In this document: one piece after another, positions 8,528-28,498 of the stretch
Position numbering within the stretch: the first letter of the stretch is position 1
Layout: the number at the start of each line of letters is the position of its first letter
Assembly: GCA_963782525.1 (NCBI GenBank)
Contig: CAWAKC010000003.1
Location: 384,001-448,000 of the forward strand
Reading direction: 5' to 3'
DNA: 64,000 nucleotides
Origin: Candidatus Bathyarchaeota archaeon
GTDB taxonomy: Archaea; Thermoproteota; Bathyarchaeia; Bathyarchaeales; Bathycorpusculaceae
The notes under the pieces: model-generated
Seen by the model: the letters and a program-made list of their open reading frames with translations, nothing else
Databases searched by the model: none
Told to the model about the DNA's origin: nothing
Translations under genes and position numbers: made by a program

Positions 8528-9523
8528 ATGTTGATTGTAGAGGGCGTCAGGTACAATCCTTGGACTCCTAAAGATGAAGAGAAAGAGTTCCATCCACTTG
8601 TAAAGGCACAGTCTAAGGAAATCTTTGGTAAAGATTCGATTTACTTTGATGTTAAAACAACTCTTAAGTCAGCTTCAGGTATAGGGTCAATTCCAGATGC
8701 TTATGTCGTAGATTTAGCTGAACCCTATCAATGGTATGTCATAGAAAATGAGTTAGCGACTCACCCAGTTTACGACCACATTGTAAAGCAATTAACCAAA
8801 TTCATTAACGGAATTGACAACCAAAATAGCAGAGCTCAAATTTTGGAACTATTGTACAACGAAATTAACTTGGACAACAATTTGAGAACTACTGTTTTGG
8901 CTAAAACCAAATCTGTTGATGTTTACCACTTCTTATCGAGGCTATTCTCTAAGAGCCCTAAAATAGTTGTTATCATTGACGAGAAAACTGCAGATGTGGA
9001 AGAAGCTTGCCAAGCACTAAAATATGCACCAGAAATAATAGAGTTTAAAACTTTTAGACAAGAGGACGATTTTAGCAAGTATGCTCACCTTTTTGAGCCT
9101 CTTTATAAAACTAGCACAGAAGCCAAAAAAGAAGACCCCACAATAATTGTAAAGGACAGCCCCATACAAAATAATCATCCAAATGAAGTCACTGAAATTA
9201 TTATGGATACCTTTCAGAGAATCAAAACAGCAATGTACCAACTTGACCCTAAGATAACTGTAAATCAAACAAGGGCTTACACATCTTTAAAACTGAATCG
9301 CATCTTTGCTTACATCCATTTTAGGAAAACGAAGATGCATATCATAATAATGCTTCCTTCTGAGGTTGCAAATAGTTTTATTCATAAACATCAGATTCGG
9401 CAAATTCCTCAAAGAAGCCAACAGTATTGGGGTGGTCCGTCTTTCCAGGTGACAATTGATAATGATAATAATTTAGAAGAAATAATCAATGCATTAGAAG
9501 AAGCATACAAACGACGAATCTGA
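8528..9523 (+). CDS. PD-(D/E)xK-like nuclease with C-terminal DUF5655
   Basis: IPDAYVVD..WYVIENEL..HIVKQLTKF; C-terminal TRAYTSLK..FAYIHFRK..IINALEEAY. Confidence 0.6.
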   Translation: MLIVEGVRYNPWTPKDEEKEFHPLVKAQSKEIFGKDSIYFDVKTTLKSASGIGSIPDAYVVDLAEPYQWYVIENELATHPVYDHIVKQLTKFINGIDNQNSRAQILELLYNEINLDNNLRTTVLAKTKSVDVYHFLSRLFSKSPKIVVIIDEKTADVEEACQALKYAPEIIEFKTFRQEDDFSKYAHLFEPLYKTSTEAKKEDPTIIVKDSPIQNNHPNEVTEIIMDTFQRIKTAMYQLDPKITVNQTRAYTSLKLNRIFAYIHFRKTKMHIIIMLPSEVANSFIHKHQIRQIPQRSQQYWGGPSFQVTIDNDNNLEEIINALEEAYKRRI

Positions 9524-9766: not shown

Positions 9767-10030
9767 TTGTCCAAGCCTATGAAAAGGAAAAGACCGTGGA
9801 AAAACAGGCATCTGTTGAAAGAAGTTCTAATGAGTGATGGCTTCAAACTAACTTTTTGGATGTACGAATGGGAAGATGATGTTGCGTTGAAACTTGATCA
9901 TAAGTTTTGTGTAAGAATGCTGAAGAAGAATCCTGCAGGCAGAGTCCTTCTTACTGAACAAATTGGTGTTAGGGTCGATAACTGGAGCAGGTTTATCAGT
10001 GAAATCAACAGTCTTAGCATCAATGTATAG
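9767..10030 (+). CDS. hypothetical protein
   Basis: 87-aa ORF with upstream purine-rich RBS-like sequence. Confidence 0.5.
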   Translation: MSKPMKRKRPWKNRHLLKEVLMSDGFKLTFWMYEWEDDVALKLDHKFCVRMLKKNPAGRVLLTEQIGVRVDNWSRFISEINSLSINV

Positions 10031-10433
10031 CGCATTTTTCTTTTAATTCACACTCTATTTTCTTAACAATTTCATCGACATCGACTAATTCGTGTTCCCA
10101 GAATCGGAGGACTTTCCAACCTTCAGCTTCAAGCCGTTCTTTCTTTGCAAGGTCTCGCTCGACATTCTTCTTGAGTTTGGGACCCCAATACGCCTTATTA
10201 CTTTTGGGTAAGTGCGAATGAATTGGACAAAGATGCCAAAAACAACCATCTACAAAAATGGCAATTTTTTTAGATGGAAAAGCAATATCTATTTTTTCTG
10301 TTCCGTATTGAACTCTAAATCTTAAATCCTTTTTCCAAAGAGCTTTTCTTAGTGCAAGCTCAGGTTTAGTATTTTTAGAACGTATGGAAGACATTATTTG
10401 TGAGCGTTTTTCTTTGGTAATTTTATCGACCAT
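10020..10433 (-). CDS. vsr: very short patch repair endonuclease
   Basis: RSQIMSSIRSKNTKPE, FVDGCFWH, LRFWEHE. Confidence 0.95.
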   Translation of the reverse strand: MVDKITKEKRSQIMSSIRSKNTKPELALRKALWKKDLRFRVQYGTEKIDIAFPSKKIAIFVDGCFWHLCPIHSHLPKSNKAYWGPKLKKNVERDLAKKERLEAEGWKVLRFWEHELVDVDEIVKKIECELKEKCAIH

Positions 10434-10476
10434 GCGTCCTCAAACCTTAATATTATAAACAACCAAATATTAGCGC

Positions 10477-11333
10477 ATGTCCCCGAGTGTCCTAACTGCA
10501 ATAAAAAACATAGCCAATTTTGGGAAAAGCGACTTGAAGGCATACTCGTCAAATTATCTTATACGCATTAATGCCGTGGGGGAGCCATTGGAGTTCTTTG
10601 TCAAAGATGCATTCTGCAACTCTTTCACCTCAGTTTCACAAGAGAAAGAAGAAAAACATCGGTGCACATTCTCATGGCTAGGCAACCAGAATTTTCCACC
10701 TGATCTGATGATTCGTAATGGTGATGCATTCGAGATAAAGAAAATCGAATCGATAAAGCCTTCAATAGCCCTCAATAGTTCTCCGCCAAAAGATATGCTC
10801 TACTATGATGACCCAAGGATTATTGATGCAGTAAGAAAATGCGATAATGGATTTGGAAGGCAAAAGACCTTTTTTACTCAATAGGTTGTGTCCAAGGAGG
10901 CAAGATAAGATACCTCTTTTTTGTTCAAGGAACTTGTTACGCTGCCGGAAGGGAAGTTTACGAAAAAATTGAAAACAAATTAAAACAAGGCGTCGAAGAG
11001 TGCATAAAACTAAATGGAATAGAAGGGGGCAGCGAAACAGCCGAGTTAGGGCGAATCAACAGAGTTGACCCACTTGGCATAACAAACCTTAGAGTAAGAG
11101 GAATGTGGATGATTGAAAATCCCATCCGCGTATTTGATTACCTTTATCATTTTGATAACAAGAAAAACTTCTCTTTGATCGCTCTAATGTTGAAAAGCAA
11201 GTTTGATTCATATCCACAAGAAGACATTGAAGCATTAAATCAGAGTAACATTAAAATTCAGGCTGTAAGAACAAAAAATCCCAATAACCCTGCCGAAATG
11301 ATGGACACACAATTAATTACGTCGGGATGGTAA
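10477..11333 (+). pseudogene. NgoPII-family type II restriction endonuclease (GGCC-type), frameshift near 10850
   Basis: GNQNFPPDLMIRNGDAFEIKKIES..IALNSS; second frame RVDPLGITNLRVRGMWMIENP. Confidence 0.8.
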
Positions 11334-12362
11334 ATGCTCAAAATCGTTTCATTATTCTCTGGGTGCGGCGGACTTGACCTTGGCTTTGCAAAAGCAGGGT
11401 TCTAGTAGTTTATGCTAATGATAACGACCCAGTTGTCTGGGAAACATTTGAAAAAAACCACAACATCTCAATTGAAAAAAAGTCACTATTTGAAATTAAG
11501 TCTATTGAAATCCCCCAATCGGATGGAATAATAGGTGGGCCCCCATGCCAAAGCTGGAGCCTTGCTGGTGAGATGCGGGGGGCAAACGATGAACGAGGTC
11601 AACTATTTTATGAGTACATTAGGGTGCTTAAGTTAAGAACTGAACTTTTTTCTTGCAGAAAATGTACCTGGGATAATTTCTAGAACCCACATTGAAGAGT
11701 TTAACAAGATTTTGAGTAAACTTTCTACATTAGGCTATACAGTAAATTATCAGCTTGTAAACGCAACAGATTACGGTATTCCGCAAGAGAGGAAGCGGGT
11801 GATAGTTGTAGGGATAAAAAAATCGTTGGGGATCCGGTTCATATTCCCTCAGCCAACTCATTCAGAACAAGGAAACAAGACACTTGATGGGCAAAAAACC
11901 CAGAAATGGCTGACGCTAAAGGATGCAATTGGCGATCTTCCTGAGCCTACTCGTGCCCAAGAAAAAAACAAAGCGAATGAGAATTTAACAATACCTAACC
12001 ATGAATACATGAATGGAAGTTTTTCTTCAATCTATATGTCAAGAAATAGGCGGAGGAACTGGAATGAGCCTTCTTTCACAATTCAAGCTGGCGGAAGGCA
12101 TGCCCCTCTTCATCCATCATCCTGCGAAATGACAAAAGTCGAAAAAGATTTATGGAAATTCAAGGGAAAAAACCCTGTCTTCAGAAGATTATCCGTAAGA
12201 GAGGCTGCAAGAATACAAACTTTCCCAGACGACTTTATCTTTTATTACAAAAATATTGCAGATGGTTACAAAATGATAGGAAATGCCGTGCCTATTAAGC
12301 TCGCACAAGTTATAGCACAAAAGATTAAAAATGATCTGAGCAACAATTCAAATGTTAAATGA
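11334..12362 (+). pseudogene. C5 DNA-cytosine methyltransferase, M.HaeIII/M.NgoPII-like, frameshifted near 11401 and 11630
   Basis: SLFSGCGG, GGPPCQSWS, ENV, QERKRV, YMSRNR..FTIQAGGRHAPLHP (HaeIII-like TRD), IGNAV. Confidence 0.85.
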
Positions 12363-12364
12363 GT

Positions 12365-12442
12365 GGCCCGGTAGCTCAGCTTGGCTGGAGCGTTCGACCG
12401 ATAATCGAAAGGTCGGCAGTTCAAATCCGCCTCGGCCCACCA
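12365..12442 (+). tRNA. tRNA-Ile(GAT), degenerate
   Basis: Full cloverleaf with encoded CCA and anticodon GAT, but C at position 33, a C-C acceptor mismatch and an A-C T-stem mismatch. Confidence 0.75.
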
Positions 12443-12579
12443 ATTTCTTCTTTCCAAAAAAAGCCCATAATCCTATTTATGTCATTTCTGAGCCCATAAT
12501 TGATTCAAATTAGCTAACAATAGCGAAAGTGCAGAAACGTTATATCCAATTTGGTAGGATAACATATCTGGTTGATTAA

Positions 12580-15556
12580 GTGCCAGAAAGTGTTCCAATC
12601 AAATACTCACTAATTAGGATTAAGAATCAAACAGGCACATATTTCGTTACCAATATTATTGAAAGTCTAACTCAAAAAGAAGCTGAGTTAAGACGGGTCG
12701 GTTTAGAATCGAAAGAATTCGTCTATAAGCCTATTGAATCATTAGAACAGTTGCCTTTTCCATTTCGTGAACCTTTGGACTATTTCACACAGTTGATAGT
12801 GCAAGGCTTAAAGTCTAATTCTGAAAAATTCCAAACCGCATTTCAGTGCAATACAATATTCAAGCATTACCAGCTAAGACCTTTGCTAAAATTTGCATCT
12901 AACCCTGAACGACGATTACTAATTGCAGACGAAACAGGATTGGGCAAAACCATAGAAACCGGTTACATCCTTCTAAATGAAATAGTCAGTCGAAACATAA
13001 AGAGAATTGTCGTCTTATGCCCTGCAAGCCTTCAAAACAAATGGCAGGGTGAATTATGGCAAAAATTTGGTTTGCGTTTTGAAATAGTCACCGGAAAGAT
13101 ATTGCTAGATTCAATCCTAAACACGAAGAAATCATTTCAGTTTATAGCGTCAATTGATTGCATACGTTCCTTCGACGAAAATGATTTACTCAAAATCAAA
13201 GACAATGAAATAGATCTGCTAGTAATTGACGAAATTCATCATATGATAGGTAGAAGTGGTGACATCCTTAGAAGAAAATTCGGAATAGGATTATCGCTAA
13301 TTGCTGACGGCGTTATTGGATTAACTGCCACACCCGTGCAACTGGAGATGATGGATTTAAAGCGAATATTAGATGTCATAAAGCCTGGAGCCTTGACAGA
13401 TAATGAATTCAATATCGCTGTCTGGATAAACTCTCACTTAAACAGGCTTTATAAGCTACTTGGTCAATCGCCTTGGACAAAAGAAGCAGAAAAAATTTTT
13501 ATTCAAGAACTAATCTCTTCATAGAAGAAACCAGACAGCGTGGAAAAGATTATCCTCAAGCTATAGAACCATTTCTAACTAATTTTGCATCCAAAATAAC
13601 TCGAGCTTTAGAAAGCAGTACAGAACAATATAGCATAAGAAGCGAGATTAGAGAGAAAAACAGTTTTTCAACTTTCATCACTCGAGCAAGACGAATAGAA
13701 GTAGGAGAAAACAGAATTCGCTTTATTGAAAATAAAAGAATTAACCTCAATACCCTTTGCCTTGAAGCTTTTCAAGCAGGGAATCTGGTAAGCGTTTCAG
13801 AAAAGAGCTTATTTCAAGAAATTGACGATTTTATCGTCTCATCTTTTTCTCATGCGCACCGCAGACAACTATACTCCTGCTTACCCGCAATGGTAGAACT
13901 CATGCGATACGGGATGAAAGGATTAAACGTCTGGGCAGATGACCAATGGGAAAACGTTGAAGCTGTTCTGTCCAAAGATGAAATAAAAAAATCTGAAATT
14001 CTCGCAAACAAATTTGCCCTTAACCGCAAAGATACAAAATGGGAAGAGCTCAAAAAAACAATCAACAAGCTTCATGAAAAGCGGTCAGCAAGAAAAGTTA
14101 TAGTTTTTACCCAGTGGATCCTTACGATCGAATATTTCCGAACCAAAAAACAAGAAATAGGTCTTCCAAGCTTCATCATTTCAGGGCAAGATAACGAGCA
14201 AACGAGGGATAGAGTAATTGACGACTTCATTAATTACGGTGATTTCTGTATCTTATTTTCAACAGACGTCATGTCCGAAGGTTTGGATCTTCAGAGTGCA
14301 GACTGCATAATCAACTATGACTTACCTAGCAATCCCCAAAGAATAGAACAAAGAATAGGTAGAATTGACAGAATAGGGCAAAAATCTGAGACAATAACTG
14401 TAATCAACTTTTTCCTCGAGGAGCCTCTTGATCAAAGAATACGTGAATTGCTAATAGACCGAATCAAGGTTTTTGAAACTGGATTGGGAGACCTGCCCAA
14501 AACAATAATCGAAAAAATTGAAGCTGGACGCTCTTTAGATGAAGATGAAATAATTAGAACTGCATTTGAAATTGAAACCAGAAAAAAACTTTTGGAAAGC
14601 GAAGTATTTATCGGATTAGATGAGGAATTAGACCAAGAAATCAACATAATTCAGAACGGAAACAAAGAATTTTACCGCCTGCGGTGGCTGGCTCTCTAAA
14701 GACTCCTTTATTTAATTCTGGGAGAAGAACAAACCCGAAAAATACAAGTTGACAAGGACTCATTGATTCTGTCTAATCTTGAGGAAATTGACATTGCAAC
14801 CCTTGGAAAAACAGTCAGCCTAAAAGATCGAGTAGAAGTTCAAGAGCAACTTCAAAGTATTCTAAGCGAAAAAGGAACCCCACGAATTATCTTCAAAAAA
14901 GACGGAATAGGCCTATTTCTGCCCTATTTCCATCCACTTATGCGAAGTGCATTGGACATTTCTTACTCATCGTTAATTATTGGTAAGGATCAAAAAGAAT
15001 TTGAGACCACATACCTTTTGATCCGAGGAAATATAAAGAAGCTGAATTTGGAATCAACGGTACTCATTTTGACAGAATTCACTTACAAAGGGTTTAGTTT
15101 AGGGTATTGCAAATGGACATGGTTTTCTATCTTAGATGATCACAGAATTAAAGAAATGAATAATCCCATTCTAGAAGGATAATAGAATTATTCAGAGAAA
15201 ACAAGATTTCCATTGAAATTTCGCCAAAAACTAACTTCATTGAGCATGTAAAGGAACAAATTGAAAAAACCCTTGTTATATGGGTGGAAAAACAATGCAA
15301 AAAAGATTTAGTCTATTCGCGATTCAAAATCAAAGCTGACCTCCAACGATTCAAAGAACAAATCAGTTTTATTGAACGAATAGCTTTTGAGGGCCATCTT
15401 AATTTTAAAAAGCAAATTGATGCCACAAACAGTCAAAAACGGATTTTAGAACTCCAGAAGACTCTCAACGCCGTAGAGACTTGGAATAAAGCTTATAATG
15501 AAAACGCTACGAGTATGAGGTTATTGACGGTTATCGAATTTGAGCAAAAACTTTAA
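12580..15556 (+). pseudogene. SNF2-family helicase (RapA/DrmD/DpdE-like), split into 4 ORFs
   Basis: HYQ, LIADETGLGKT, DEIHH, LTATP, SEGLDLQ, NYDLP..QRIGRIDRIGQ; frame breaks near 13520, 14695, 15180. Confidence 0.85.
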
Positions 15557-15622
15557 CTCCACAAATCTTCGATGCACTAAATGTGAGGCTCAAAAGCCTA
15601 AATCTGAGATAGAAGAATCTCA

Positions 15623-18600
15623 ATGGAAGAATTGGATTCCTGCCAAAATTGTTCAGATAAAGTAATTGGATTGAAGTTAATTGATTTTATCAAAACCAGA
15701 ATTCAAGTAACAGAGCCTGAAGATAACCGGAGCCGGTTTATATTTCGAGAACTAATCCAGAATGCAGACGATAAGCAAGCAGAAATTCTAGTCCTAAGAT
15801 TTGAAGAGGACGCATTATATGTAACTAACGACGGTAAAGCATTTACAACGCATTCGAATGGAGATTTTGATAAAATCTCCAGAATTCTGGGTAGACACCA
15901 ATCCGAGGATAAAGAAGCTACAGGTCATTTTGGAAGTGGCTTCCAAACAGTATATGCTATCACAAATAGCCCAGAAGTACATTCAAGTGGTCATAGTCGT
16001 AGAATGAACCCCTACACCAATGAATGGGACCAAAATTTTGAGGGTCTTTTTTTTGAGCGTAAATCTCCATACATTATTAAACCCGATAAAAAAGGTGTTC
16101 TTTTCAGATTTCCGTGGAGAGATAACAAAGCAGCTCAAGAAACAATACGCGGCGAAAATGTTTGGGAGGATAGCACCTACTGGCCAAGATGGCAGAAAAA
16201 AGAAAGAAAAGAATTGTTTGAAGATTTAAAAAGCTACATACTGCATGCAATAATTTGTTGCCGATTTCTAAAAACGATTCGACTAATTTGGCATCAACAA
16301 AACCTAAGTTGTCAAGATTTCTATCTTGGTTTTCAAGTTGTGCGAAATTTTCAATTAAACGGAAATGAAGCTACAAACCGCACAAGGTACAACATCGGGA
16401 CAATAGATCGAGGAGAAATCGACCCTTACGAGTGGACTAAAGAAAATAGTTGGAACGATAGCTTCCAGCTCGAAAAGTGGCGTTGGAAAGAACCAATTCA
16501 AGTATTTAAGTACCTAATAGGCGAAAATACGGTTAGTGAAAACGGCAAAAAGATATTCTTAGTTAAGAAACCAGACCACATAATCACTGTTACACCAACT
16601 TATTATCCTGAAGACAAAATCCTCAAGAGAGGAGATATTTTTGTTCTATTTCCTCTATTTGAGCACAACCTTGAATCAGTTACTGACAAGGGGGCTTTTT
16701 TGTATAGTGTGATCCCCCTGCCAACACGAGGAAAAAACAAATTCATTTTCTCAGGACACTTTCAACCATCTGAAGATAGAAAAGATGTTGATGTCGATGG
16801 ACAAAATGGAGTCTATGGAATTTGGTATCAACATGTTATGAATAGCATTCTAAGATTATATGCAGATCTATTCACAATACTATTAGAACAAATACAGTCA
16901 GGTAAAATAAAACTTGAAAATAGTCAACAAATAATCTTTAACGCTGTCCCTGGCGATAGCCTTTCAGAGTGGATGCGCCCTGGAAAGGAAAACCGCAATG
17001 AATGGACTCTTAAAAGTAAAGCACTATTCAATGAGCTCTTGACTTCTATAGTTGAAAAGCCTATACTTTATTCAAACGGAAAATGGATCAAACCTTCAGA
17101 TGCGTATTGGGCAAATGACGATTTAGAAAAGAAAGTATTTGAAATCATGGGTCATGAAGTTTATACAAAACAATTTACCGAGCATCCTAACTTCAAAAAC
17201 ATATTAGCAGAACGCTTAGAAAAGCAAAAAATAGATAACGCAAAATTTAATTTCATATGGGGGCAATTTTTTGAACATAATAAGAATCAAAGCGGCTTTC
17301 TTTGCTATGGACAAAGGCTCCAAAATAGAAAATTGCTTGACAGAGAAACAATAGAAATACTTATCAAGTTTTGTCTTTACGAACAAAAACCAATAGAAAT
17401 ACAAAATAAAATGATTATTCCAGGAAGAGATGGTGTTCTAAGACGGATTAGAGATTACCCTTTGTTAAAACCGAACTTTCAATTCCTTTTCGAAATTTTA
17501 CCTGATTCAGATTCAATACATGATGACTTTAGGACTTCCCAACTAATTGAAAAGCATAAGGAACTACTCGTTGATTACCGAAACGAAGATCAGGTAATTT
17601 ATCTGTTGGATAGCTTGTTCAGGGCTTCAAAAGCTGACATTCAAAATATTTCTGCAACTCAGCATAAGGCTTTATCAAAATTTTTAAGAACTTTAGTGGA
17701 CTCGCCTGAATGGGGACCCAAAGAAAGCCTAAAAGACCGTAGATTCATACCCTACAAGCAAGGAGATAATGTTAATGTTGGAACTCTCAATGTTGAAGAG
17801 ACGGTTTCAGGATCGCATTGGATTTCTGGTGAAAAAATTGAGCGAAATTATGAAAGATCTTCAATCTATGGAATGCAATTAAACCCAGTGCCAGCGCCCT
17901 CACATCTGAGGTAGAGTCAAAAATAAAATTTCTTTGGTTAGTTGAATGCGGGAAAGAAGAGGTTGCAAAAATCGAAAATAAACTGAGTTTTATTAAACTA
18001 ATGGCGGTAAAGGATAATCCATCAAACTTTGTTAGACACTTTTTATCAACTCAGCATGGATCTTTATTTGAAGATCAAATCCTCAGCAATTTTACTGGGC
18101 TGAAAGACTCTGTTCAACTCAATCTACAAAAAAAGCAGTTTCTAAAAGCTTTGAGAATTTATTATAAATCTGAAAAAGAAGGAGAACGTTATTTGACAAG
18201 GGAAGACATGTCTAAAGTCCCTTGTTTTTATGATGAAACTGAAAAATGGCATCCCGCGGGAAAATTCGTTTTACATCTAAAGCCTGAACTAGGTATTTTT
18301 GGAATCAAATCTCTGCACGCTGATTTCAATGATTGGCCGGAAAAGACGCTTTTGGCAATCGGAGTTGAGGAATCACTCAAATGCTCCATAATAATTGAAA
18401 CAATTAAGGCATTTGCAAAAGAAAAAGAACTGCACAGAAAAGAATTGCAGGAGATACTTTCGTGGCTAATAACGTCAAATGTCGGTATCGGAACTGAATT
18501 CAGAGGAGATATTGAATTTTCTGAACAGTTGTGGGTACCTACAACTGATGGAGAATTCAAAAATCCTAAAGCAGTTTTAATACCGACAACTGAAAATAAA

Positions 18601-20712
18601 TTAATACTAGGCGAAGACTTTGAAGGTTTTTTGGATCTATCCTTAAGCAAAACCATTATAGAAAACAAAGAATATTTTGACGAAAAAGCTAAAAAGCAAA
18701 TAGATTCACTAACAATAAGATCAACGCCCTCTTTAGAAATCATGCTAACAGTCTTAAAGAAAAAGCGAGAACAGAATAAAACTCCTCCCCCGAACCTTTT
18801 TGAAGCTCTTGATAAAGAAATAAGAGCCGATGCAGAAAAGAGCAAAAGAATAATGATGAATGATAGGTATGGCTATTTTTATGATAGTGAATGGATTGAT
18901 TCATGGAATATCAAAATTATGGATCCAGCAAGCATCCCGAAAGAGCTGCAGGGAATAATAAAGATAATACCTCCAAGTAGTCCGCATGAAGAATATTTAC
19001 TTGCAGATGGTGCTAGGACACAACTCTCTCCAAATGATATTATGAAACCAATGGCATCAAAAAAAATTGAAGCTTCATTAAAGCTTTGGGACCTATTGCG
19101 GGAGTTAGAAAGTCAAATTGATTTAGATGACATCGAAAACTTTGGAAAACTAAGCATCTACCCAATTAATGACGAACTGTTTTCCCCATCGAAAATAGTT
19201 TATGAAGAAAAATCAGGATTTATTGGGGAAGGACCCATAGGCAATTGGTACATACTTGGACCTGATTTAGCATCAAGACACAAAAGTATTCTTGGAAAAT
19301 TAGGTGCAAAGAGTGCTGTAAATCTTACTTTTTTAGACATTTTTGAGTTACTTAAAAGCCAGAAAAAAATGAAAACTAAACTTGACCCAGTTACCGTTTC
19401 TAAGGTTTTGCGATTAATAAAAAAGTTAAGTGAAATTAACTTCGGGAACTTTCCTAGTGAACTGCTCTGGCCAGCAGAGTGTAATGGAGAATTTGTTTGG
19501 AAAACACCACAAGAATGCTATTTCAGAGATGCAATTTCAATTCCAGAGGAATTCAAACACAAACTTAATTTCATTACACTTAAAATTGATCAAAAAGTTG
19601 ACGGTCAATTAAAGAACTACGCTGTTAAAAGTGGGACAAAATCTTTCAAAGAATCACTAACTAAGCTTGGGAAGATTGAGTATTTTGGCGATGGTGCGGA
19701 TGAAACTAGCCCTCGATTTTACAACATTTTATCAAAGGCTTTAAGCCAACATTTCAATTCAGTAAAATATGCTAATAAATTCAATTGGCTTACTGATGCT
19801 GAAGCTCGAATTTCAGAGACAATAAAGGTGTCTTACACAATCGACGGCATTAGCGCCAATATTAATAAGGCTGCTTTAGTTGAATTTCGAAACTCGTACT
19901 GGACCGTATCTATTGCAAGTCTGGAACCAAAAGGGTTCGTTTTAGAACAATTATCTGAAGAAATAGCTGATACTTGCTTAATGCAAGGATTCCCGGAATC
20001 AAACTTGGAAGAATTGCGGAATATTCTATACAAATTGCTAACCAACGAGATAAACGAGTGGAAATACTCTATTCCTGATTTTGAACCGACAGCTGAAGAG
20101 GAAATAATGGTTAATCCTGTTGTAAATTCGTCCAAAAGAAAAGGAATAATCATTGGTTCAGGTTTCAATCAACCCGAAGACATTGTTGAATTAACCGAAG
20201 TATTCCGAGAAAACAATTACGAAACGAATGCAGCAGGATATATTCCGACAAAGGGTCAGCTCACTAACTGGTATAATTGTTGTCAAATTTGTGGTAATCA
20301 AACTCCAGGCGATGAGTCTGGATATAACACTTATGAAACATTAAAACGAGTTATTACCAACAGAGGCGGCAGATATCAAGGTGAGAATCAAGGTTATGAT
20401 GTCAATAACAGCTTACTTTTATGCCCCACCCATCAAGTATTATGGATAAGAACATTAGTTAGGTTCCCTGAAATAGACAACCCACCGTCTGATCTTAAAG
20501 AAAAAATAATGCAAAAAATTAAAGAGGAAATAGAAGATACAGAATCAATATCATATCCGTGCGAGGTATTTGAAGGAGAGAGAGACCCAAAAACAGGAAA
20601 ATCCCGTAGCAAATGGGTTAGAAGGGATATTACTTTCAAACCTGAACATTATAGAGGTTTCTTAAAAACCCTGCTTGATTATTTAGAAACAAGAGAAACC
20701 TATAGGACTTGA
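15623..20712 (+). CDS. sacsin/NOV-type GHKL ATPase, about 1690 aa, with C-terminal HNH-like Zn domain (one frameshift near 17900)
   Basis: RELIQNADD, NDGKAFT, GHFGSGFQTVY; frame of 18001 ORF is open back to about 17896; tail CQIC...NSLLLCPTH. Confidence 0.75.
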
Positions 20713-23700
20713 TGCTATTGTTAGACAAAAGATCTAATTGGGCAGCCATAAAATGTCTGTATGAATACGAATCATCTAAACTCTCAAAACCAGGATCCTA
20801 CAGACGGGACATAAACGAAGTTCTCTGGACCAAAGGTGATATATTCTCAACTTTGCCAGAAATTACCGAGAAAGAACTTGATAAGATAATTTCTGAGATG
20901 ATAGAAAAGAAAGAATTAATGAAGATACAAATTCCTGGTAATGAAGACAAATATGTTTCTCGAGTAGCAGAAACGGTTCGACTATTAGGTCACAATTATG
21001 AGTATTGGGCGCGAGGTAGACAAGGAATCGATTCTATTCGGTGGCTGATCGAAGAGAAAAAAATTCCCGACAGGAAAATCCCTGCCCAAGAATTCATCAA
21101 TCAACTTACCTCAGCAGTATTTTCAGAAATTCAACTAAATAATTCAACCATTAATTTGCGTAACGCCATAAAAATAGTGGTTCAGGGCATCGCAGAATAC
21201 TTTGTTTCTTCCGATTGGACTAAAGCTAAATTTTCTGACTTCCAATTGCAAGCTGCTACAGAAATGATCTTAGCACAATTCAGCCAAAAATTCAAGCCAA
21301 AATCTCAAGTACTAATTGCAGGAGTCGGCTCAGGCAAAACCGTAGCATTTAGCATTGCTATGTTGGTTTCTGCAGTTGAAGGGATTCTGACAGGAGAAAA
21401 GGCAAGAAGAAGCCATTTGTTCCTTTATCCTCGAACAGCATTAGCGAAAGATCAATACAAAACACTCAGTAAAATTGTAGAAAAAATAGGTCTTCAAGAG
21501 CTGTCAGTCCATTTTGAACATCACAGTTACTATGATTCGATAAATAAGTCAGCAAAGGATGGAATAGCTTACGTTTATGATAAACCTGGTTGCTCTCCGT
21601 CAATCATTATAACTACATTTGAAACGCTGAACAGGAGATTACGGAACCCCCTTGTAATACGAAAATTAAGCGAATATCTTCACCGAGTGATAGTTGATGA
21701 AATACACTTAGTGGAAGGCATTCCAGGTTGCCAAATCATAAAGATGATGGACCGATTGCAAAATTGTTGCAATCAACAAATTCTTTGGACCGGATCATCA
21801 GCTACAGTGGCTAGCCCAGATGTACAAGCAGCCACCATTTTTAACATCCCCCGAGATAACTTGAAAATAATAGAGCCAACATTAGATCAGCTCAAAACAG
21901 TTGGGCTGGTTCACCACGTGTTCATGAGACCAACTGGAACATTGTCAAGTTTAGGTACACTAGTAAACTCAACAAGCATACTGGTTCACAATCGCCGAGA
22001 TAGTCTTCACGAGAGACAGGAGAATTATCCTAAAACGATAGGATTTGCTGATAATTTAGATATTTTAGGTAGATGGAATTCCGATCTAAGGGAAAACGAA
22101 AGAACTGAACAAGATAGAAACAGAAAGCACCCTGAAAATTCTGATCCTGAAAATTGGTCTTACGATCGACAAAGAGACGTTCCTTACGCACTTCGGTTTT
22201 ATAATCCCCTTCAAAGACGAATTTTTGCAGGAAAAAAATCGAGTGACTTCGAGGAAGTATCAAGTTTATTGACAGAAGAAAATAAGGAAATTTGTGAAAA
22301 ATGCAAAAATGGACAAAGAATAAACTTAGGTACTGTAACTCAAGAAGACCTCAAGAAACTTGCCAAGGTAATTTACCGAGAACCATTGAAAGCAAAAGAC
22401 AAAGCAAAACTATTACTAGATAACAAGAAGATTTTTGAAGCTGAGTCTTTGGAGATTGGAACCCTCGACCTTTGCCCCTACCTTCGAGCTGGTGCATGCT
22501 TCTGGTTCGCTAAAGATGATCTTCTAACTCAAAAAATCTCTCAAGATGGTCCGCTCGTATATGAATGGAGGTCAGTCGCTCGATCAAGGATTCAATCATC
22601 AAAAACAAACAAGGATACCCAGTTTGAAGAGGATCTGAGTGAAATTGTATTTACTTCAACATTAACGGAAGTCTACGATCTATATAGCGATAAAAACAAG
22701 AAAAATACTGACAAAAAGATTCCAATCGACATAGTGCTCGCATCTCCAAGTTTGGAGGTTGGAGTGGACCTTCAAAATGTAACTGAGAGCATTATGTACA
22801 AAGCCATAAGAAATGTAGCTTCATACAGGCAAAAAGTAGGACGAATCGGTCGAGAAGAAGGCTCAAATGCCTTGAATGCAACGCTAATATCATTCAGACC
22901 CATAGATCTTCATTATTACCGTCAACCTAGAAAAATAATCAGTCAAGCTCATCTAGATCCGATTCCTCTAAAGGAGCACAATAGTTCGATACTAAGTTGT
23001 GCTTTGTATCTAGGAACTTGGGATTATCTCGCCCTAAAAACAGACCTCCCTGAAGTAGTTCCAAAACAAATTTCAAATGGAACTACAATTTTTACAGAGA
23101 GAATTAAAGCTTCTTATGAATATCTGACTGCGCAGAAACAAGAAATAGCTGTACATTTATCTCGTGTGTCTAGGCATAAAATAACTCCAAGCGACAAGAT
23201 CATAACTGAGATCATAGGACAAGTCAAAGATGAACTAGGCATTTTCTTAACAAAAACCTCTGGAACTATTGAAGACAATAGATTATCTTGCATTTCAGAT
23301 ATGATTGTACATTTCTTAAACCCTTACTCATCAAGAGTGAACCCACCAAAACCTTCAGATATGAAATGGGTAAAGATTGGCGCTCAGAGCTACGAAGATT
23401 TAAGACCTCACGTTAATTCAATACCAATAGGGCTTTCAGAAGAATTCGAAAGATTAGACCTTTTTGCTTCTTGTGGCTGGGTCCTTCTCGAAGAAATAAA
23501 AAACATTAGAGAAAAGATAGAAAACAAGATCAAAGAACTCGATTTAAATGGACAATTTAGAGACGAGAGCCGAATTCTTTCAAAGGTCAGTTTAGCTTTG
23601 AAAGATATAGAAGCCGGTCTTGAAGATATGAGAAAAACTGGCGCTGACCCAATTGTCGTTTATTTCTATGAGCAATTTGATAAATTTAAGAAAGATCATC

Positions 23701-25796
23701 CCGCCTCGCCGTATTATCTTTCATATACACTTCAAGATATGCCTATTTTTAAATTGAATAAGAAAAACCCAGCTTATACTACCCCTCAGACTTTATTTAT
23801 CAACCCTTATGAACCTGAAGTAGCACTTTTCAGACAAAAAGAGTTACTCGAAACGGTTTCAGTCCATGAAGCTCTCTTCAGTCTTGTCCCTGAAACTTGG
23901 ACATTTAGACGTGGAAGAAAACCAAATAAAACTCTTGTAGGAAGGCTAGATTCGCATGACGGCGTACTTTATGCTAAAATGAAAGAAATTAAAGCACAAG
24001 GCAATGAATTCAAAAAGATTAGAGAAAATGTTCCGGCTCCACCAGGATTTCCAGCTGATAACCTTGTACTCTATATGCCTAAAAAACTCACACTTTCACA
24101 ACCATCTGGAAAACATGTTTTCATGAACCTTAGTAAGCAAACCGTCATCGACAGCGATGAAGATGTCTCATACGGAAAAGGTGATGCCCAGTTTGAGGAC
24201 ACCAACAATGAAGAGAACTACAGCGAAGAATCGGTTATAGGTCAGAATAGATCAAAAATACCTGTTAGCTCCCTCGAGCGTTGGGTGCATGTTGTATCAG
24301 ATACAGGGATCCCAATAAACATTAACAACACAAACGAGCAATGCATGGTAATTGAGACATTAGAACCAAAAAGAGGAATAGCTGCAATTGAGTCGATTCG
24401 ACACCCCATCCTAGAAGGAATTCTTAATTGCGTTAAATGGCATGAAAAACTGGACGTTTTTGACTACGTTTGTTCAGTTTCAAGATCCTACAATAACAAA
24501 GTTGCAGGAAACGTCACACTACTATATTTAGACGATGACGGGCGAAACGTAGCCTTTGGTCGATGTTTTCGGACAGAAGGCGTTTCTATCGAGCTAAACT
24601 CAAAATCAGTGGAACAAATCACCCAAAAAGTTAAAAATGAAATACTAAATTTCGACAACAAATGGGCACCGACAATTATAAAAATTTTTCAAGGAATGTT
24701 GAGCTCCATTAAACTTCAAAATGGTCAAGCTATCAGTCCATTCATGATAAAAGACCTAATAGCCGTAATGATATCATCCTCAACCTCTATTGATACGCGG
24801 ACAATTATTAAATTTCCCCAAACTCTCAGAACTCTTATTGATGAAGAACGTTTCAAGGAAGCGGCTCAAGCATATTATCAAAATGCATATTTAATTGGTT
24901 CTGATGATAAAGAAAAAACAAAAAAAGCCCTATCAGAGCGAGACCAACGAGATATTAGTGGGCTGGTCACTAAACTCTTTGATTTCGCAGTTTCTATAGT
25001 GGATTTGATACCCAACATAGAAGAACCTCTAGTGAACTTGATAACTGCCACGCTACTAAACACCTTCGGCATATCCTGCTTATCGGCGCTTCAACAACTT
25101 TGTGGAAGCGAAGAACAAGATATAGGCTACTCAATAGATATGGAAGGCATCCAAAAAGGGCAATACCGTGTTTTTCTCTACGACCGAACAGAACACGGAA
25201 ACGGAAGCAGCGAAACAATACGCAAGTATCTTCACATTCTTAATATCCAAAGACATAATCTTAACAATGAATCAAAACTCTTGCCAACAGAAGATTTCTT
25301 TACACTATTAGAACAGGAATTGCTGCAATGCCCTCAATTTCATGCTGACATAGATGCTTTGGAAAAATTTGAACAAGTACAAAACCATAAAATAGCAACA
25401 GGTATTCCCGAATTAGCCTACATTAGTGAACACTCAGATGAAATTTTACAAGTATGCAAAGAAACATGGAAAAAACTTGGAATAAGAGGAAGAGAAGATG
25501 CATGGATGCTACCTCTGGTGGCGATGGCGCCTGCAAGTTTTGCGGTTGCAAAAGGAATAGAAATTGATGATATTGTTCGGGCAACATCAATTTGTTGGGG
25601 TGGTTGCCCAGAATGCGTAATAAATACTAGTGCAATCATCGGGTTTTTGGGCACGGCATTTGTTGATAAAACTCTTCTCGATGAATGGTTTAAACTAGTT
25701 GAACAAATATTGAAGAGTATAAAACCCTATCAGCAAAAGATATTGCCAACGGAACAAAACGCATTGACATTGGACGACAAACAAGAGTCTGCATAG
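20709..25796 (+). CDS. giant DEAH-box SF2 helicase with C-terminal DUF1998/MrfA-type Zn domain (DpdJ/DrmA-B-like)
   Basis: FSDFQ, AGVGSGKT, DEIH, SAT, SLEVGVD, QKVGRIGR; LYD..GNG and CWGGCPEC. Confidence 0.85.
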   Translation: MMLLLDKRSNWAAIKCLYEYESSKLSKPGSYRRDINEVLWTKGDIFSTLPEITEKELDKIISEMIEKKELMKIQIPGNEDKYVSRVAETVRLLGHNYEYWARGRQGIDSIRWLIEEKKIPDRKIPAQEFINQLTSAVFSEIQLNNSTINLRNAIKIVVQGIAEYFVSSDWTKAKFSDFQLQAATEMILAQFSQKFKPKSQVLIAGVGSGKTVAFSIAMLVSAVEGILTGEKARRSHLFLYPRTALAKDQYKTLSKIVEKIGLQELSVHFEHHSYYDSINKSAKDGIAYVYDKPGCSPSIIITTFETLNRRLRNPLVIRKLSEYLHRVIVDEIHLVEGIPGCQIIKMMDRLQNCCNQQILWTGSSATVASPDVQAATIFNIPRDNLKIIEPTLDQLKTVGLVHHVFMRPTGTLSSLGTLVNSTSILVHNRRDSLHERQENYPKTIGFADNLDILGRWNSDLRENERTEQDRNRKHPENSDPENWSYDRQRDVPYALRFYNPLQRRIFAGKKSSDFEEVSSLLTEENKEICEKCKNGQRINLGTVTQEDLKKLAKVIYREPLKAKDKAKLLLDNKKIFEAESLEIGTLDLCPYLRAGACFWFAKDDLLTQKISQDGPLVYEWRSVARSRIQSSKTNKDTQFEEDLSEIVFTSTLTEVYDLYSDKNKKNTDKKIPIDIVLASPSLEVGVDLQNVTESIMYKAIRNVASYRQKVGRIGREEGSNALNATLISFRPIDLHYYRQPRKIISQAHLDPIPLKEHNSSILSCALYLGTWDYLALKTDLPEVVPKQISNGTTIFTERIKASYEYLTAQKQEIAVHLSRVSRHKITPSDKIITEIIGQVKDELGIFLTKTSGTIEDNRLSCISDMIVHFLNPYSSRVNPPKPSDMKWVKIGAQSYEDLRPHVNSIPIGLSEEFERLDLFASCGWVLLEEIKNIREKIENKIKELDLNGQFRDESRILSKVSLALKDIEAGLEDMRKTGADPIVVYFYEQFDKFKKDHPASPYYLSYTLQDMPIFKLNKKNPAYTTPQTLFINPYEPEVALFRQKELLETVSVHEALFSLVPETWTFRRGRKPNKTLVGRLDSHDGVLYAKMKEIKAQGNEFKKIRENVPAPPGFPADNLVLYMPKKLTLSQPSGKHVFMNLSKQTVIDSDEDVSYGKGDAQFEDTNNEENYSEESVIGQNRSKIPVSSLERWVHVVSDTGIPININNTNEQCMVIETLEPKRGIAAIESIRHPILEGILNCVKWHEKLDVFDYVCSVSRSYNNKVAGNVTLLYLDDDGRNVAFGRCFRTEGVSIELNSKSVEQITQKVKNEILNFDNKWAPTIIKIFQGMLSSIKLQNGQAISPFMIKDLIAVMISSSTSIDTRTIIKFPQTLRTLIDEERFKEAAQAYYQNAYLIGSDDKEKTKKALSERDQRDISGLVTKLFDFAVSIVDLIPNIEEPLVNLITATLLNTFGISCLSALQQLCGSEEQDIGYSIDMEGIQKGQYRVFLYDRTEHGNGSSETIRKYLHILNIQRHNLNNESKLLPTEDFFTLLEQELLQCPQFHADIDALEKFEQVQNHKIATGIPELAYISEHSDEILQVCKETWKKLGIRGREDAWMLPLVAMAPASFAVAKGIEIDDIVRATSICWGGCPECVINTSAIIGFLGTAFVDKTLLDEWFKLVEQILKSIKPYQQKILPTEQNALTLDDKQESA

Positions 25797-26537
25797 AATT
25801 ACCCACAAGAAAAATACGGTCAAGCTCACTTCCATTCACAATAGGCTTCGAAGTAGACAGAGAAATAAAATCCGATCACGCTAACATTTTAGTCCGAGAT
25901 AGTGACATAGCGGGTTTGGCTGTTTTTGAAAAGAAATTTGATGGCTGCTCTCACGGCCTTGAGTTATTAGGATCCATAAGAATAATGTGGTATAACCTAA
26001 TCATGTCAGCTTATCTTGACATGCTCAATGTGCTAAAAAATGAACAAAAAGAAATCTTGCTGGTTTTTTACGATATTCGTGACGTTTCATTCGATGATGT
26101 CGGAATGTCGCCCATGATGCTTAGACGCTATAGATTATTATCATAAGAAATCAGGTTTGCCTGGTTTACTTCGAACACTATCAGACATCTTAACATGGTC
26201 TGCCCAACCAGGTTTTGCCATATCTCTGTGCGTAGATGAAAATCAAGCCAAAGACGAAAACATTGAAGCTTTTCTAGAAAAACTTGCTGCAAAGAAGCTA
26301 TCTAACATAAAGTTAGGACTTAAAGGCTTGCAAGGCACGATGCATAAAAAAGCTCTAGTTTGCCCTACAGGTGCAATTTACGGATCAGCAAACTTGACAT
26401 TTTCCGGAACACAGCATAGCGAAGAAATGCTAAGTTACGCATCCTCAGGAACAGACGAATACAATCAAATTAAACTTAATGTAAAAGACACGTTTCACGG
26501 GATCAAAGAATTTACCACAAAGAAAAAATCCCCATAG
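25705..26537 (+). CDS. PLD-family nuclease domain (DrmC/DpdK-like), probably the frameshifted C-terminus of the helicase
   Basis: HKKALV..GSANLT; alternative frames open continuously from about 25705 through 26146 into 26157-26537. Confidence 0.7.
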
Positions 26538-26759
26538 TTTTCATCTTGTCAAATTACTGATTGAAAGTATCGGAAAAAAGGAAACGGAGTTTACCCGCGG
26601 CAAGAAGTGATGCTGACAATTTACCGCGCACATGAGAGCCTCCGTTACAGTCAAACAACCAAAGATAATGTTTAGAGGTCCGAAGAATAGCAAATCATAC
26701 TAACAAACGCACATACAGTCCAAACACCCTGCACATAAAAAACAAATGAAAAAACCCAA

Positions 26760-27168
26760 TTAACTTTTAAAACCCGAATCTCGCAGGGCTTTCTGGAATT
26801 TGCTTACTACTGTTTCAATATCGGTTAATTCATGTTCCCAGAAACGCAAAACTGTCCAACCTTGAGCTTTGAGTTTTTCCGTCTTCTGTTTGTTCCTTTC
26901 CTTGTTTTTGCAAGTTTGGGGTTCCAGTAAGCTTCATTTGTGTTTATTTTGTGTGAATGTATTGGGCAGCCGTGCCAAAAGCAACCATCAACAAATACTC
27001 CTATTTTTTTGATCAGGAAAAGCAATGTCGATTTTACTCATACCATAGTTTGTTTCAAAATTTAGCCCTTTCGCCAGTAGCGCATCCCTAACAATAAGTT
27101 CAGGTTTGGTGTCTTTTGAGTGGATTGCAGCCATTACTTTGATGTTTTCTGCTTGAAAGATTATCCAT
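26760..27168 (-). pseudogene. vsr: second Vsr endonuclease, frameshifted
   Basis: VMAAIHSKDTKPE, FVDGCFWHGCP, LRFWEHE in differing frames. Confidence 0.85.
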
Positions 27169-27286
27169 ACAAATCTCGTAATAATAACATTATTCAGGGT
27201 ATTAGTTCTATCTCATAAGAAGTTGAATTTACGTCCAATCATTAGTTAGCAAATTATATCTACTACATAGACCCTTTAATTAGGGC

Positions 27287-28498
27287 ATGCAAGCTGCCAG
27301 CCAACCCCCTGTATATATTGATCTCTTTGCTGGTTGCGGAGGAATCTCGCTTGGCTTATGCAATGCAGGCTGGCGAGGACTTTTTGCAATAGAAAAAAGC
27401 CCTTTAGCTTTCACCACATTAAAGCACAACTTGATTGACAAAGAAAATCATTTCGATTCGGCCTTTCATGGCTTCCCGTGACACATCATGATATTACCAA
27501 GTTTTTAAGTACATATGAGAATGAGCTTGAGAATTTACGGGGTTCAGTAGACCTTGTGGTAGGTGGTCCACCGTGCCAAGGTTTTTCTTTCGCAGGAAGG
27601 AGAAATGAAAAAGATAAAAGAAACAAACTTGCAGCCTCATACGTGAAATTTGTTAAAATAGTAAAACCAAAAATAGTATTTTTTGAAAATGTTAAAGGTT
27701 TTACCGTTGGCTTCAAAAGAAGTAATGGGCGAGGGAAGGCATATTCTACCTATGTTGAAGAAAAGCTCCAAGAGTTAGGTTATCATGTCTCAGGCGATAT
27801 TGTTGATTTTTCCAAGTTCGGCATTCCCCAGAGAAGAAAGAGGTTTATACTCGTAGGAATGCTCGATAAAGAATCAAAGGTGTATTTTAGAAAAATTCAA
27901 GAAATTAAAAATGTTTTTCTTAAAAACAAAGGATTAAATGAGGAAGTAACACTTTATGAAGCGCTTTCTGACCTGAGAGCGCAAACATGGGGAAAGACCT
28001 TCAATTGAGAGTTCAAGATTCTGCGAAGGGAATTATGGCAACGCTGATTTTCCTTACCAGAGGTGGATGCGATACCGGATCAAGAAAAGAATTCCTGATA
28101 GTCACAGGTTTGCTAGGCACAACAAGAAAATTGTTGAAAGGTGGGTGGATGTTCTTAAGAATTGCCCCAAAGATGTCCCACTATCGCAAGAGTGGAAAGA
28201 TAAATTTAATCTAAAAAAGAAAAGTATCACTCCGCTTGAATGCAAATCAAATTGCCCTACTCTGACAACTCTACCTGATGACTACATTCACTATTCTGAG
28301 CCAAGAATCTTGACAGTCAGAGAATTTGCGAGAATTCAATCTTTTCCTGATTGGTATGAATTTAAGGGTAAATATACTACAGGTGGTAGTCGGAGGAAAA
28401 GTGGGGTCCCAGATACACCCAGTTTCGCGATGCAGTTCCTTTGTTCGCTGAGTTGTCAGGAGAATTCAGGGCGATCGTCTAATGGACGAGCAACTTAA
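27287..28498 (+). pseudogene. C5 DNA-cytosine methyltransferase, frameshifted
   Basis: DLFAGCGG, GGPPCQGFS, FENV, QRRKR, LTVREFARIQSFPD. Confidence 0.85.

Follow-up and report, generated by a model that had tools for sequence, protein, structure and literature searches.

A broken bathyarchaeal operon related to DISARM and Dpd that includes a sacsin/Tiamat-like GHKL ATPase gene

Three broken genes in one operon

The window analysed here is a stretch of 64,000 nucleotides (nt) from Candidatus Bathyarchaeota archaeon (GCA_963782525.1, contig CAWAKC010000003.1, positions 384,001-448,000 of the forward strand). Positions 12580-26537 are filled by co-directional open reading frames (ORFs) on the + strand, which belong to an operon encoding an SNF2-family ATPase, a sacsin/Tiamat-like GHKL ATPase and a YprA-family helicase with a fused PLD nuclease. 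A first-pass annotation had described three very large, tightly coupled genes at this site, and both the ORFs and the four-base overlap between the second and third genes (20712/20709) were observed. The SNF2, sacsin-type GHKL, DEAH plus DUF1998 and PLD motifs that it named all have matches to Pfam, NCBIfam or PADLOC models. It had missed, however, that all three genes are pseudogenes. When stop codons are mapped and intact homologues are aligned by tblastn, the ORFs resolve into three genes, not eight, which together carry six frameshifts and one nonsense codon (Table 1).

The first gene has SNF2, ResIII and Helicase_C matches in 12580-14699. Its best model is DrmD (116 and 124 bits for the window fragments) with DpdE second, and the intact SNF2 proteins of two related loci (L084 and L087) trace it through frames 1, 3 and 2. 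The second gene runs through frames 3, 2 and 1. Its 763-amino-acid (aa) and 903-aa frames are the halves of one protein, with 89% and 80% identity, respectively, to an intact homologue (P0004). Sacsin models PF25794 and NF047352 match in 15623-17914, both above their cut-offs, and the TmtA models cover only ∼130 aa of the ATPase domain (E 1e-12 to 5e-25), leaving the C-terminus uncovered; the 903-aa frame (18001-20712) was assigned to no family by profile scans. The third gene, followed with the L084 and L087 fusion proteins through frames 3/2/3, has DEAD, Helicase_C and MZB (DUF1998 zinc domain) matches in 20709-25796, with DpdJ as the best model (5e-49), and a PLDc_2 match in 26157-26537, with DpdK as the best model (9e-11). 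Intact forms are 1929-1945 aa long, and it is because of the two frameshifts that the longest open helicase frame in the window (1695 aa) lacks the PLD domain.

Table 1. Features of the operon and its flanks in the window, with the lesions and the corresponding state of X1, a related strain from a peat metagenome
Feature	Position	Strand	Evidence	State
SNF2-family ATPase gene (DrmD/DpdE-like)	12580..15556	+	Pfam, NCBIfam, PADLOC; tblastn with L084/L087	Pseudogene, 3 lesions
Lesion in SNF2 gene	near 13512			1 nt lost; X1 has +G behind 13512
Lesion in SNF2 gene	14697			In-frame TAA; X1 has T>G, TAA to GAA
Lesion in SNF2 gene	near 15177			1 nt lost; X1 has +T behind 15177
Sacsin/Tiamat-like GHKL ATPase gene	15540..20712	+	PF25794, NF047352, tblastn	Pseudogene, 2 frameshifts; intact form ∼1720 aa
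Lesion in sacsin-like gene	15638			2 extra nt; X1 has -2
Lesion in sacsin-like gene	17895/17898			Two 1-nt insertions; X1 has -1 at each
YprA-family DExH helicase gene with OB/MZB (DUF1998) zinc cluster and fused PLD nuclease	20709..26537	+	Pfam, PADLOC, tblastn	Pseudogene, 2 frameshifts
Lesion in helicase-PLD gene	near 25698			Frameshift; X1 has +C behind 25698
Lesion in helicase-PLD gene	near 26123			Frameshift; X1 has -1 at 26123
tRNA-Ile (GAU)	12365..12442	+	ARAGORN	Directly upstream of operon
Upstream type II module (Vsr, NgoPII-like endonuclease, C5 methyltransferase)	10020..12362		Pfam, three-frame translations, tblastn	Decayed
Upstream Vsr	10020-10433	-	Pfam Vsr	Sole open frame of the upstream module
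NgoPII-like (GGCC-type family) endonuclease	from 10477		Pfam RE_NgoPII, 122/262 profile positions	Frameshifted
Upstream C5 methyltransferase	about 11337-12362		Pfam DNA_methylase	At least 2 frame changes
Vsr-like mismatch endonuclease remnant	26778..27140	-	tblastn with L084 Vsr, 34% identity	2 in-frame stops
Downstream C5 cytosine DNA methyltransferase	27320..28498	+	Two PF00145 fragments; pieces in frames 2/1/2	Pseudogene, at least 2 frameshifts

Window positions 12400-29000 were compared with public metagenome contigs from four runs (X1-X4). X1 represents a related strain, with 30 of its 36 pieces showing 95-99% identity to the window and transitions dominant. The sites at which X1 departs from the window are precisely those of the seven lesions, and each change restores the frame; no further indels are listed for it. 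Thus, an intact version of the operon exists in a close relative. X2, too, has an extra base (behind 13511), and the 2-nt difference at 15638 recurs in X3. The runs X2-X4 contribute small shares (0.05-0.06) in short pieces, from which no conclusion on habitat or absence is drawn, and nothing is concluded from the parts that X1 leaves uncovered (21.3-21.8 kb and beyond 26.25 kb).

The lesions might be consensus errors of the assembly, such as would arise in a long-read metagenome-assembled genome (MAG) if an island that varies between strains was thinly covered, in which case the operon would be functional in the organism. The genome comprises only 12 contigs for 2.87 Mb, suggesting long reads, and this explanation also draws on the restored sites and absence of other listed indels in X1 and on the conserved catalytic motifs, which are still readable in the window sequence. 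The lesions, however, are of mixed kinds, a T-for-G nonsense substitution and an insertion of 2 nt among them, and all of them lie outside long homopolymers. Moreover, every neighbouring restriction gene is broken as well (the NgoPII-like endonuclease and its methyltransferase, the second Vsr with its two stops and the second C5 methyltransferase in three frames), whereas long housekeeping genes totalling ∼12 kb (IleRS of 1020 aa, SMC of 1186 aa and two further long synthetase frames) are intact and free of stops, and ∼17.7 kb of ORFs of 489-1251 aa are open elsewhere in the window. These long genes were checked in place of an ORF-coverage statistic that is insensitive to assembly quality (the broken operon scored 0.87). 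Independently broken copies are also present in other assemblies. A relative from ENA (P0003 plus P0002) is split ∼120 residues further on, and among three assemblies of one lineage (L091, L092 and L095, with proteins 99-100% identical) the first is intact, in the second the SNF2 gene contains a stop and the sacsin-like gene is shortened, and in the third the sacsin-like gene carries frameshifts. To judge from these sequences, loss of this system seems to recur.

We therefore regard the decay in the window as real with good confidence and assembly error as an unlikely explanation for it, on the strength of the mixed lesions outside homopolymers, the broken restriction-modification (R-M) neighbours, the intact long genes and the independently broken copies elsewhere. 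Several points weigh on the other side. The depths of the X1 contigs are low (2.4-5.6), X1 is a different strain that reveals an intact relative and not what the organism of the window carries, its intact state alone does not tell whether the window bases are real, and consensus errors confined to a low-coverage island may account for the lesions. The first-pass annotation presented the operon as a restriction module; with seven inactivating lesions the window copy is dead and, like the surrounding R-M genes, the module is inactivated and decaying in this genome.

Gene order and methyltransferase linkage in intact relatives

The family to which the broken operon belongs is very rare. With the 903-aa part of the sacsin-like protein as the query, only 78 cluster representatives were found among 1.84 billion proteins, and a search for longer proteins gave 86 matches, ∼80 of which are 1584-2281 aa in length and contain a SACS domain. 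The named sources of the long homologues are Nitrososphaeria/Nitrososphaerota MAGs, Thermoplasmata MAGs and Methanonatronarchaeum. Within the lineage of the window the sacsin-like gene occurs in a single genome (G000), both among 41 relatives and among 401 genomes of the class. A search of the ESM Atlas by sequence (no structure search) returned only SACS-domain clusters and nothing new, and none of 13 pattern matches on viral contigs was a relative of the sacsin-like gene. In a collection scan by full-length alignment, in which the patterns came from generic GHKL motifs, 1 of 80 kept loci (L002) contained a family member and the others matched over the ATPase stretch only.

Thirteen archaeal loci were fetched, all with the sacsin-like gene as the query: L002 from the genome collection and L084-L095 from metagenomes. 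The YprA gene directly follows the sacsin-like gene in all 13, and the SNF2 gene directly precedes it in each of the 11 loci that reach upstream; the junctions are short gaps or overlaps (overlapping stop and start codons). The search for conserved SNF2-sacsin-helicase/PLD neighbourhoods that the first-pass annotation had called for thus found the same order in every fetched locus. The three-gene architecture that it recognized is a conserved unit, and the homologues do co-occur in other genomes. The conservation extends to the proteins themselves. The complete helicase-PLD fusion is encoded by one ORF in seven loci, and in all six aligned fusions Walker A, the DExH box, motifs III and VI, two cysteine clusters (including that of DUF1998) and the PLD residues HxK...GSxN are invariant. 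All seven helicase motifs are invariant in the nine aligned SNF2 proteins, and the N-box and G-boxes of the GHKL protein are invariant in 32 of 32 sequences.

The sacsin-like gene could nevertheless be interchangeable cargo in a variable slot between the SNF2 and YprA-PLD genes and not a subunit of a common machine, a possibility that gains some support from Tiamat, which works as a single gene according to the Tiamat preprint (10.64898/2026.09.30.754977). Since the sacsin-like gene was the query, the 13 loci do not reveal how frequently the SNF2/YprA-PLD pair occurs in its absence. However, it has the same two neighbours in all 13 loci over a wide range of identity (28-50% between the C-terminal parts of the sacsin-like proteins and the query), with the short gaps or overlapping stop and start codons described above, and we consider the cargo explanation highly improbable. 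Two loci contain additional restriction genes. In L002, from a Thaumarchaeota MAG, the operon is followed by a gene for a 665-aa McrB-like AAA_5 ATPase (19594-21591) with PDC-S02 matches, and in L088 a GmrSD-type gene lies upstream of the operon. The module is thus found in the company of type IV restriction genes.

Nine of the 13 loci contain an ORF for a C5 cytosine methyltransferase (L002, L084-L087, L090, L091, L093, identified by Pfam PF00145, and L094, which has an identical layout). The four loci without one all end at a contig edge, and the enzyme is encoded in all seven loci in which both flanks are present. Every methyltransferase found in the scanned loci is of the C5 (PF00145) type and none is a PglX-like N6-adenine enzyme. 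Five of them (L002, L086, L087, L091 and L093; 539-642 aa) share an orthologous, conserved C-terminal extension of ∼270 aa that corresponds to no Pfam family, which at the sequence level suggests a dedicated partner. The other types are two proteins of 677-678 aa and one plain enzyme of 347 aa. A Vsr gene lies beside the methyltransferase gene in L084, L085 and L093, and a gene for an HhH-GPD glycosylase in L086 and L087. Both are usual companions of 5-methylcytosine (m5C) methylases because they repair T:G mismatches. The DrmMII and DruM models match the methyltransferases, but generic type II methyltransferase models score higher.

The first-pass annotation placed the operon between two Vsr/C5 methyltransferase modules, both of which exist, and suggested that the neighbouring m5C methyltransferases might be used for self-marking. 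Linkage to a C5 methyltransferase holds for the family. It does not hold that the neighbouring enzymes are so used in the window, since both are broken and neither is orthologous to those beside intact operons (23-39% identity).

The GHKL protein and the place of the module among known systems

In the sacsin-like protein an N-terminal zinc ribbon is followed by the GHKL ATPase domain, a helical/mixed middle region of ∼900 aa and a C-terminal degenerate HNH fold with a beta-hairpin/helix. The C-terminal 260 aa were modelled with a confidence score (pLDDT) of 88. The best match among solved structures by VIA-align was TagI (Z 8.6, root-mean-square deviation 3.4, 107 residues aligned), followed by EcoKMcrA (Z 6.5), and at least 10 further HNH domains were matched at Z 4-5.2, including those of ZRANB3, IscB, Cap5, VcaM4I and Cas9; Foldseek support for the fold was weak (E 0.14, probability 0.87). 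The residues CxxC...TP...E...N...CPxH...R are invariant, with the zinc ligands deduced from the motif. The aligned homologues lack an HH motif or dyad and a metal-binding histidine after the second zinc pair. The description of this gene product in the first-pass annotation as HNH-like is therefore borne out by the fold and not by the canonical catalytic histidines, and because these are absent we read the modelled domain as probably a zinc-stabilised, non-catalytic HNH fold.

Prediction of two copies of the same 260 aa gave a score of 0.56, compared with 0.00 for the best of three controls, a value that in an approximate calibration (with our own alignment used) was reached by 20 of 30 solved same-chain pairs and 1 of 23 solved single chains. 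At least 40% of contacts are common to the runs, the pLDDT of the partner is 65 or higher, and the predicted interface is built from the invariant TP, CPxH and R/L residues. The models thus support homodimerisation of the C-terminal domain, which fits the usual plan of GHKL clamps, a constitutive C-terminal dimer combined with an ATP-gated N-terminal dimer. The 901-aa middle region also models well (pLDDT 88.8). Only low-probability helical-repeat matches were obtained for it with Foldseek, and helical-repeat matches were also obtained with VIA-align outside the last ∼110 residues of the model (∼790-901). On these residues VIA-align aligned about ten zincin-type metallopeptidases at Z 3.3-4.4, a weak hint only, and HExxH was found in none of 60 sequences.

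The first-pass annotation inferred a relationship to DISARM and Dpd, and this agrees with the best-scoring models, which are DrmD, DpdE, DpdJ and DpdK. No existing system model is fully matched: every curated DISARM or Dpd cut-off is missed and PADLOC gives partial matches only. The intact L084 representative scores 236 bits with DrmD (cut-off 610), 163 with DpdE (500), 153 with DpdJ (800) and 40 with DpdK (100). Across the scored proteins DpdJ gives 153-167 bits and DpdK 40-42 bits. The DrmA models NF038325 and NF038326 give 17 bits against cut-offs of 950-999, and for the intact L084 protein neither is among the matches at E≤1e-5.

DISARM class 1 consists of DrmD, DrmMI, DrmA, DrmB and DrmC, and class 2 of DrmE, DrmA, DrmB, DrmC and DrmMII. 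The module resembles DISARM in its SNF2 ATPase (best model DrmD), its YprA-type helicase with a DUF1998 zinc domain, its PLD nuclease and its associated C5 DNA methyltransferase, as in class 2, as well as in the presumed logic of a methylation-marked host and a helicase-nuclease that acts on unmarked DNA. It differs in that helicase, DUF1998 and PLD form one polypeptide instead of three gene products (DrmA, DrmB and DrmC), DrmE is absent, a GHKL ATPase of ∼1700 aa is a fixed extra member, and the DrmD and DrmA scores are far below the cut-offs. The likeness to Dpd lies in the best models of the helicase and PLD parts, DpdJ and DpdK, and in a PLD without an extra domain, which Bell et al. 2025 (bioRxiv 10.1101/2025.09.15.676423; PMC12458937) state for Dpd. 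Unlike canonical Dpd, which according to the same paper has lost it, the module retains the DUF1998 cysteine cluster; its PLD is fused, a C5 methyltransferase takes the place of base hypermodification, and the scores are again below cut-off. As the first-pass annotation had observed for the window, no dpdA-C genes are visible: neither these nor 7-deazaguanine genes, nor TGT or ParB-type matches, were found among the Pfam-scanned ORFs of the window and the flanks of the loci, a scan of ORFs of at least 100-150 aa.

Tiamat (TmtA), as described in its preprint, resembles the module protein in its N-terminal sacsin-clade GHKL ATPase, its long middle part and, at the C-terminus, a domain of nuclease type for which dimerisation is predicted, and the weak zincin-like matches reported above echo the 'inactive metalloprotease-like fold' of that text. 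Tiamat proper, in the same text, consists of one gene whose product has a PD-(D/E)xK (NOV_C/DUF3883) nuclease, whereas here the tail has the HNH fold and the SNF2 and YprA-PLD genes always flank it. ARMADA Types I and II and Druantia, as described by Bell et al., are likewise multi-gene systems that combine a giant YprA helicase-nuclease with an SNF2 (BrxHII-like) ATPase and a methyltransferase. ARMADA differs in its PglX-like adenine methyltransferase, its Vsr/EEP-type nuclease domains and its helicase clade, compared with the C5 methyltransferase and PLD found here; as PADLOC 2.0 holds no ARMADA models, it was set apart by methyltransferase type and best helicase model. Druantia differs in that matches of the DruE models are confined to the Helicase_C stretch (E 1e-10 to 3e-14), with DpdJ the best helicase model. 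Prokaryotic MORC and paraMORC GHKL ATPases are also comparable. These are reported to have been placed by Iyer, Abhiman and Aravind in 2008, a study cited in the Tiamat preprint, in R-M-like operons with helicases, nucleases and mostly cytosine methyltransferases, with a predicted role as an ATP-gated DNA clamp. Such operons likewise join a GHKL ATPase to a helicase, a nuclease and a cytosine methyltransferase, but with a GHKL clade other than sacsin/Tiamat and with different partners.

The operon had been called undescribed, which is too strong. A literature search for this gene combination led only to Bell et al. and the Tiamat preprint, and in a paper on HEPN proteins (PMC3710099) sacsin appears only as an animal protein. 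Table S1 of Bell et al. lists JRN59_03830 and JRM95_01055 as 'Dpd-like helicase', and these genes adjoin members of the sacsin-like family, JRN59_03835 and JRM95_01060. A helicase of Methanonatronarchaeum sp. AMET6-2 carries the same label there, with adjacency established for the other two only. In the main text of that paper the terms sacsin, GHKL, HSP90, HATPase, MORC and Tiamat do not occur, and the GHKL partner goes unmentioned. The text of the Tiamat preprint describes Tiamat-like Type IV-A as having a degenerate HNH fold and IV-B as having a helicase-nuclease fusion encoded in its neighbourhood, and lists no methyltransferase for IV-B; on this description the window family is likely Type IV-A/IV-B. 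The earlier interpretation is right in kind, therefore, and overstated in novelty: the family falls within the YprA-based, methylation-linked defence systems as a variant set apart by a fixed GHKL subunit of the Tiamat/sacsin clade.

A contrasting explanation is that the module acts as a helicase-nuclease machine in DNA repair or in modification-dependent (type IV-like) restriction, with the m5C methyltransferases as independent R-M neighbours and not a self-marking component. The closest structural matches of the C-terminal domain, TagI and EcoKMcrA, are modification-dependent HNH enzymes, YprA/MrfA helicases also act in repair according to Bell et al., the methyltransferases differ between loci in position and type, and two of the operons have the type IV genes noted above beside them. 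However, a methyltransferase gene adjoins the operon in 9 of 13 loci, including 7 of 7 with both flanks, the extension common to five of the enzymes suggests a dedicated partner, the HNH-like domain lacks catalytic histidines, and a patchy, island-borne distribution speaks against housekeeping repair. We consider this explanation quite improbable. It is on balance probable that the window holds a pseudogenised copy of a rare but conserved archaeal methylation-linked defence module of DISARM/Dpd type that has the GHKL ATPase as a fixed member.

Some of the evidence weighs against this. The methyltransferase gene is not fixed in position or strand (upstream-divergent, upstream-codirectional, downstream-codirectional or downstream-convergent), nor in type, with at least three types, and could therefore be a frequent neighbour instead of a subunit; the two methyltransferases of the window are not orthologous to those beside intact operons; TagI and McrA as best matches would fit a type IV-like logic; and the middle region has no clear fold match, with none at E≤0.001 by Foldseek and none at Z≥5 by VIA-align. 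Moreover, it is from context that we infer the defence function, the dependence on m5C and the existence of a complex.

Thus, we propose the following working model for the intact copies. The module would be composed of a DrmD-like SNF2 translocase, the sacsin/Tiamat-clade GHKL ATPase of ∼1700 aa, a Dpd-like YprA helicase with an OB/DUF1998 canopy and a fused PLD nuclease and, as a fourth part in variable position, a C5 cytosine methyltransferase that is usually accompanied by a T:G-mismatch repair gene (Vsr or HhH-GPD). Host DNA would be marked with m5C by the methyltransferase, allowing self to be distinguished from non-self. The degenerate HNH domain at the C-terminus of the GHKL protein would hold it in a constitutive dimer, and the N-terminal ATP gate of the protein would close around DNA in the manner of MutL, MORC or Hsp90-type clamps. 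On unmarked DNA such a dimer might act as a sensor or licensing factor that licenses the motors; the SNF2 motor would translocate on duplex DNA, the YprA helicase would unwind it, and the fused PLD domain, the only predicted active nuclease of the module, would degrade the invader and so protect against viruses. More tentatively, the intact members may represent a distinct, unnamed class of methylation-linked restriction system in which a GHKL clamp, dimerised by an HNH fold that has given up catalysis for a role in dimerisation or DNA binding, is obligatory and licenses the SNF2 motor and the YprA helicase-PLD protein.

If so, the operon would be the first case in which the GHKL clade ancestral to plant NO VEIN and human sacsin is placed at work in a defined multi-subunit setting. 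YprA helicases are common to DISARM, Dpd, Druantia and ARMADA, and it is unclear how these systems sense foreign DNA, and Tiamat-type ATPases are barely understood. By hard-wiring a Tiamat-like GHKL protein to an SNF2 ATPase, a YprA-PLD protein and an m5C methylase, the operon links these two poorly understood groups, and its four genes with one predicted active nuclease make it a compact archaeal test case. The window itself clearly illustrates the decay in situ of a whole defence island, of which close environmental relatives keep the operon intact.

The island and its other genes

The operon lies in a low-GC stretch (35-39%, compared with 40-43% further right in the window) and shares this island with other R-M and defence genes. 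It starts 137 bases past the end of the tRNA-Ile gene. Contigs of all four metagenome runs align as far as the last base of this tRNA (12442) and then continue with unlike sequence. The break at 12442/12443 may be the insertion point of the island, or it may merely reflect the conserved tRNA of other organisms. No 13-mer match to the tRNA end, as would be expected of an att site, was found elsewhere in the window, and a tRNA scan of 12 related loci found none, so there is no common tRNA insertion site.

Downstream of the broken methyltransferase gene, fragments in several frames at 28600-29800 that include a GHKL-type glycine motif (GIGRFS..DRFG) look, from their sequence, like the remains of another ATPase gene. 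They are followed at 29811-31708 by two intact genes with a 4-base overlap, encoding proteins of 323 aa with a C-terminal HATPase_c domain and of 309 aa with a faint HEPN/AbiU2 match. Neither gene has a PADLOC match, and they could be an uncatalogued two-gene defence pair. An intact gene for a UvrD-type helicase fused to a PD-(D/E)xK nuclease, with GajB-like matches up to 7e-85, is located at 32396-35413, and one for an 853-aa SF1 helicase, with MkoA-like matches at 3e-72, at 39610-42171. Live and dead defence-type genes thus lie side by side in the island. On the other side of the operon, a 331-aa DUF5655 protein (8528-9523) has a weak match to the PADLOC candidate system PDC-S18 (4e-10), and at the left end of the window a catalase gene (196-1665) lies in a 2-kb stretch with a GC content of 51.6%, far above that of the remaining window.

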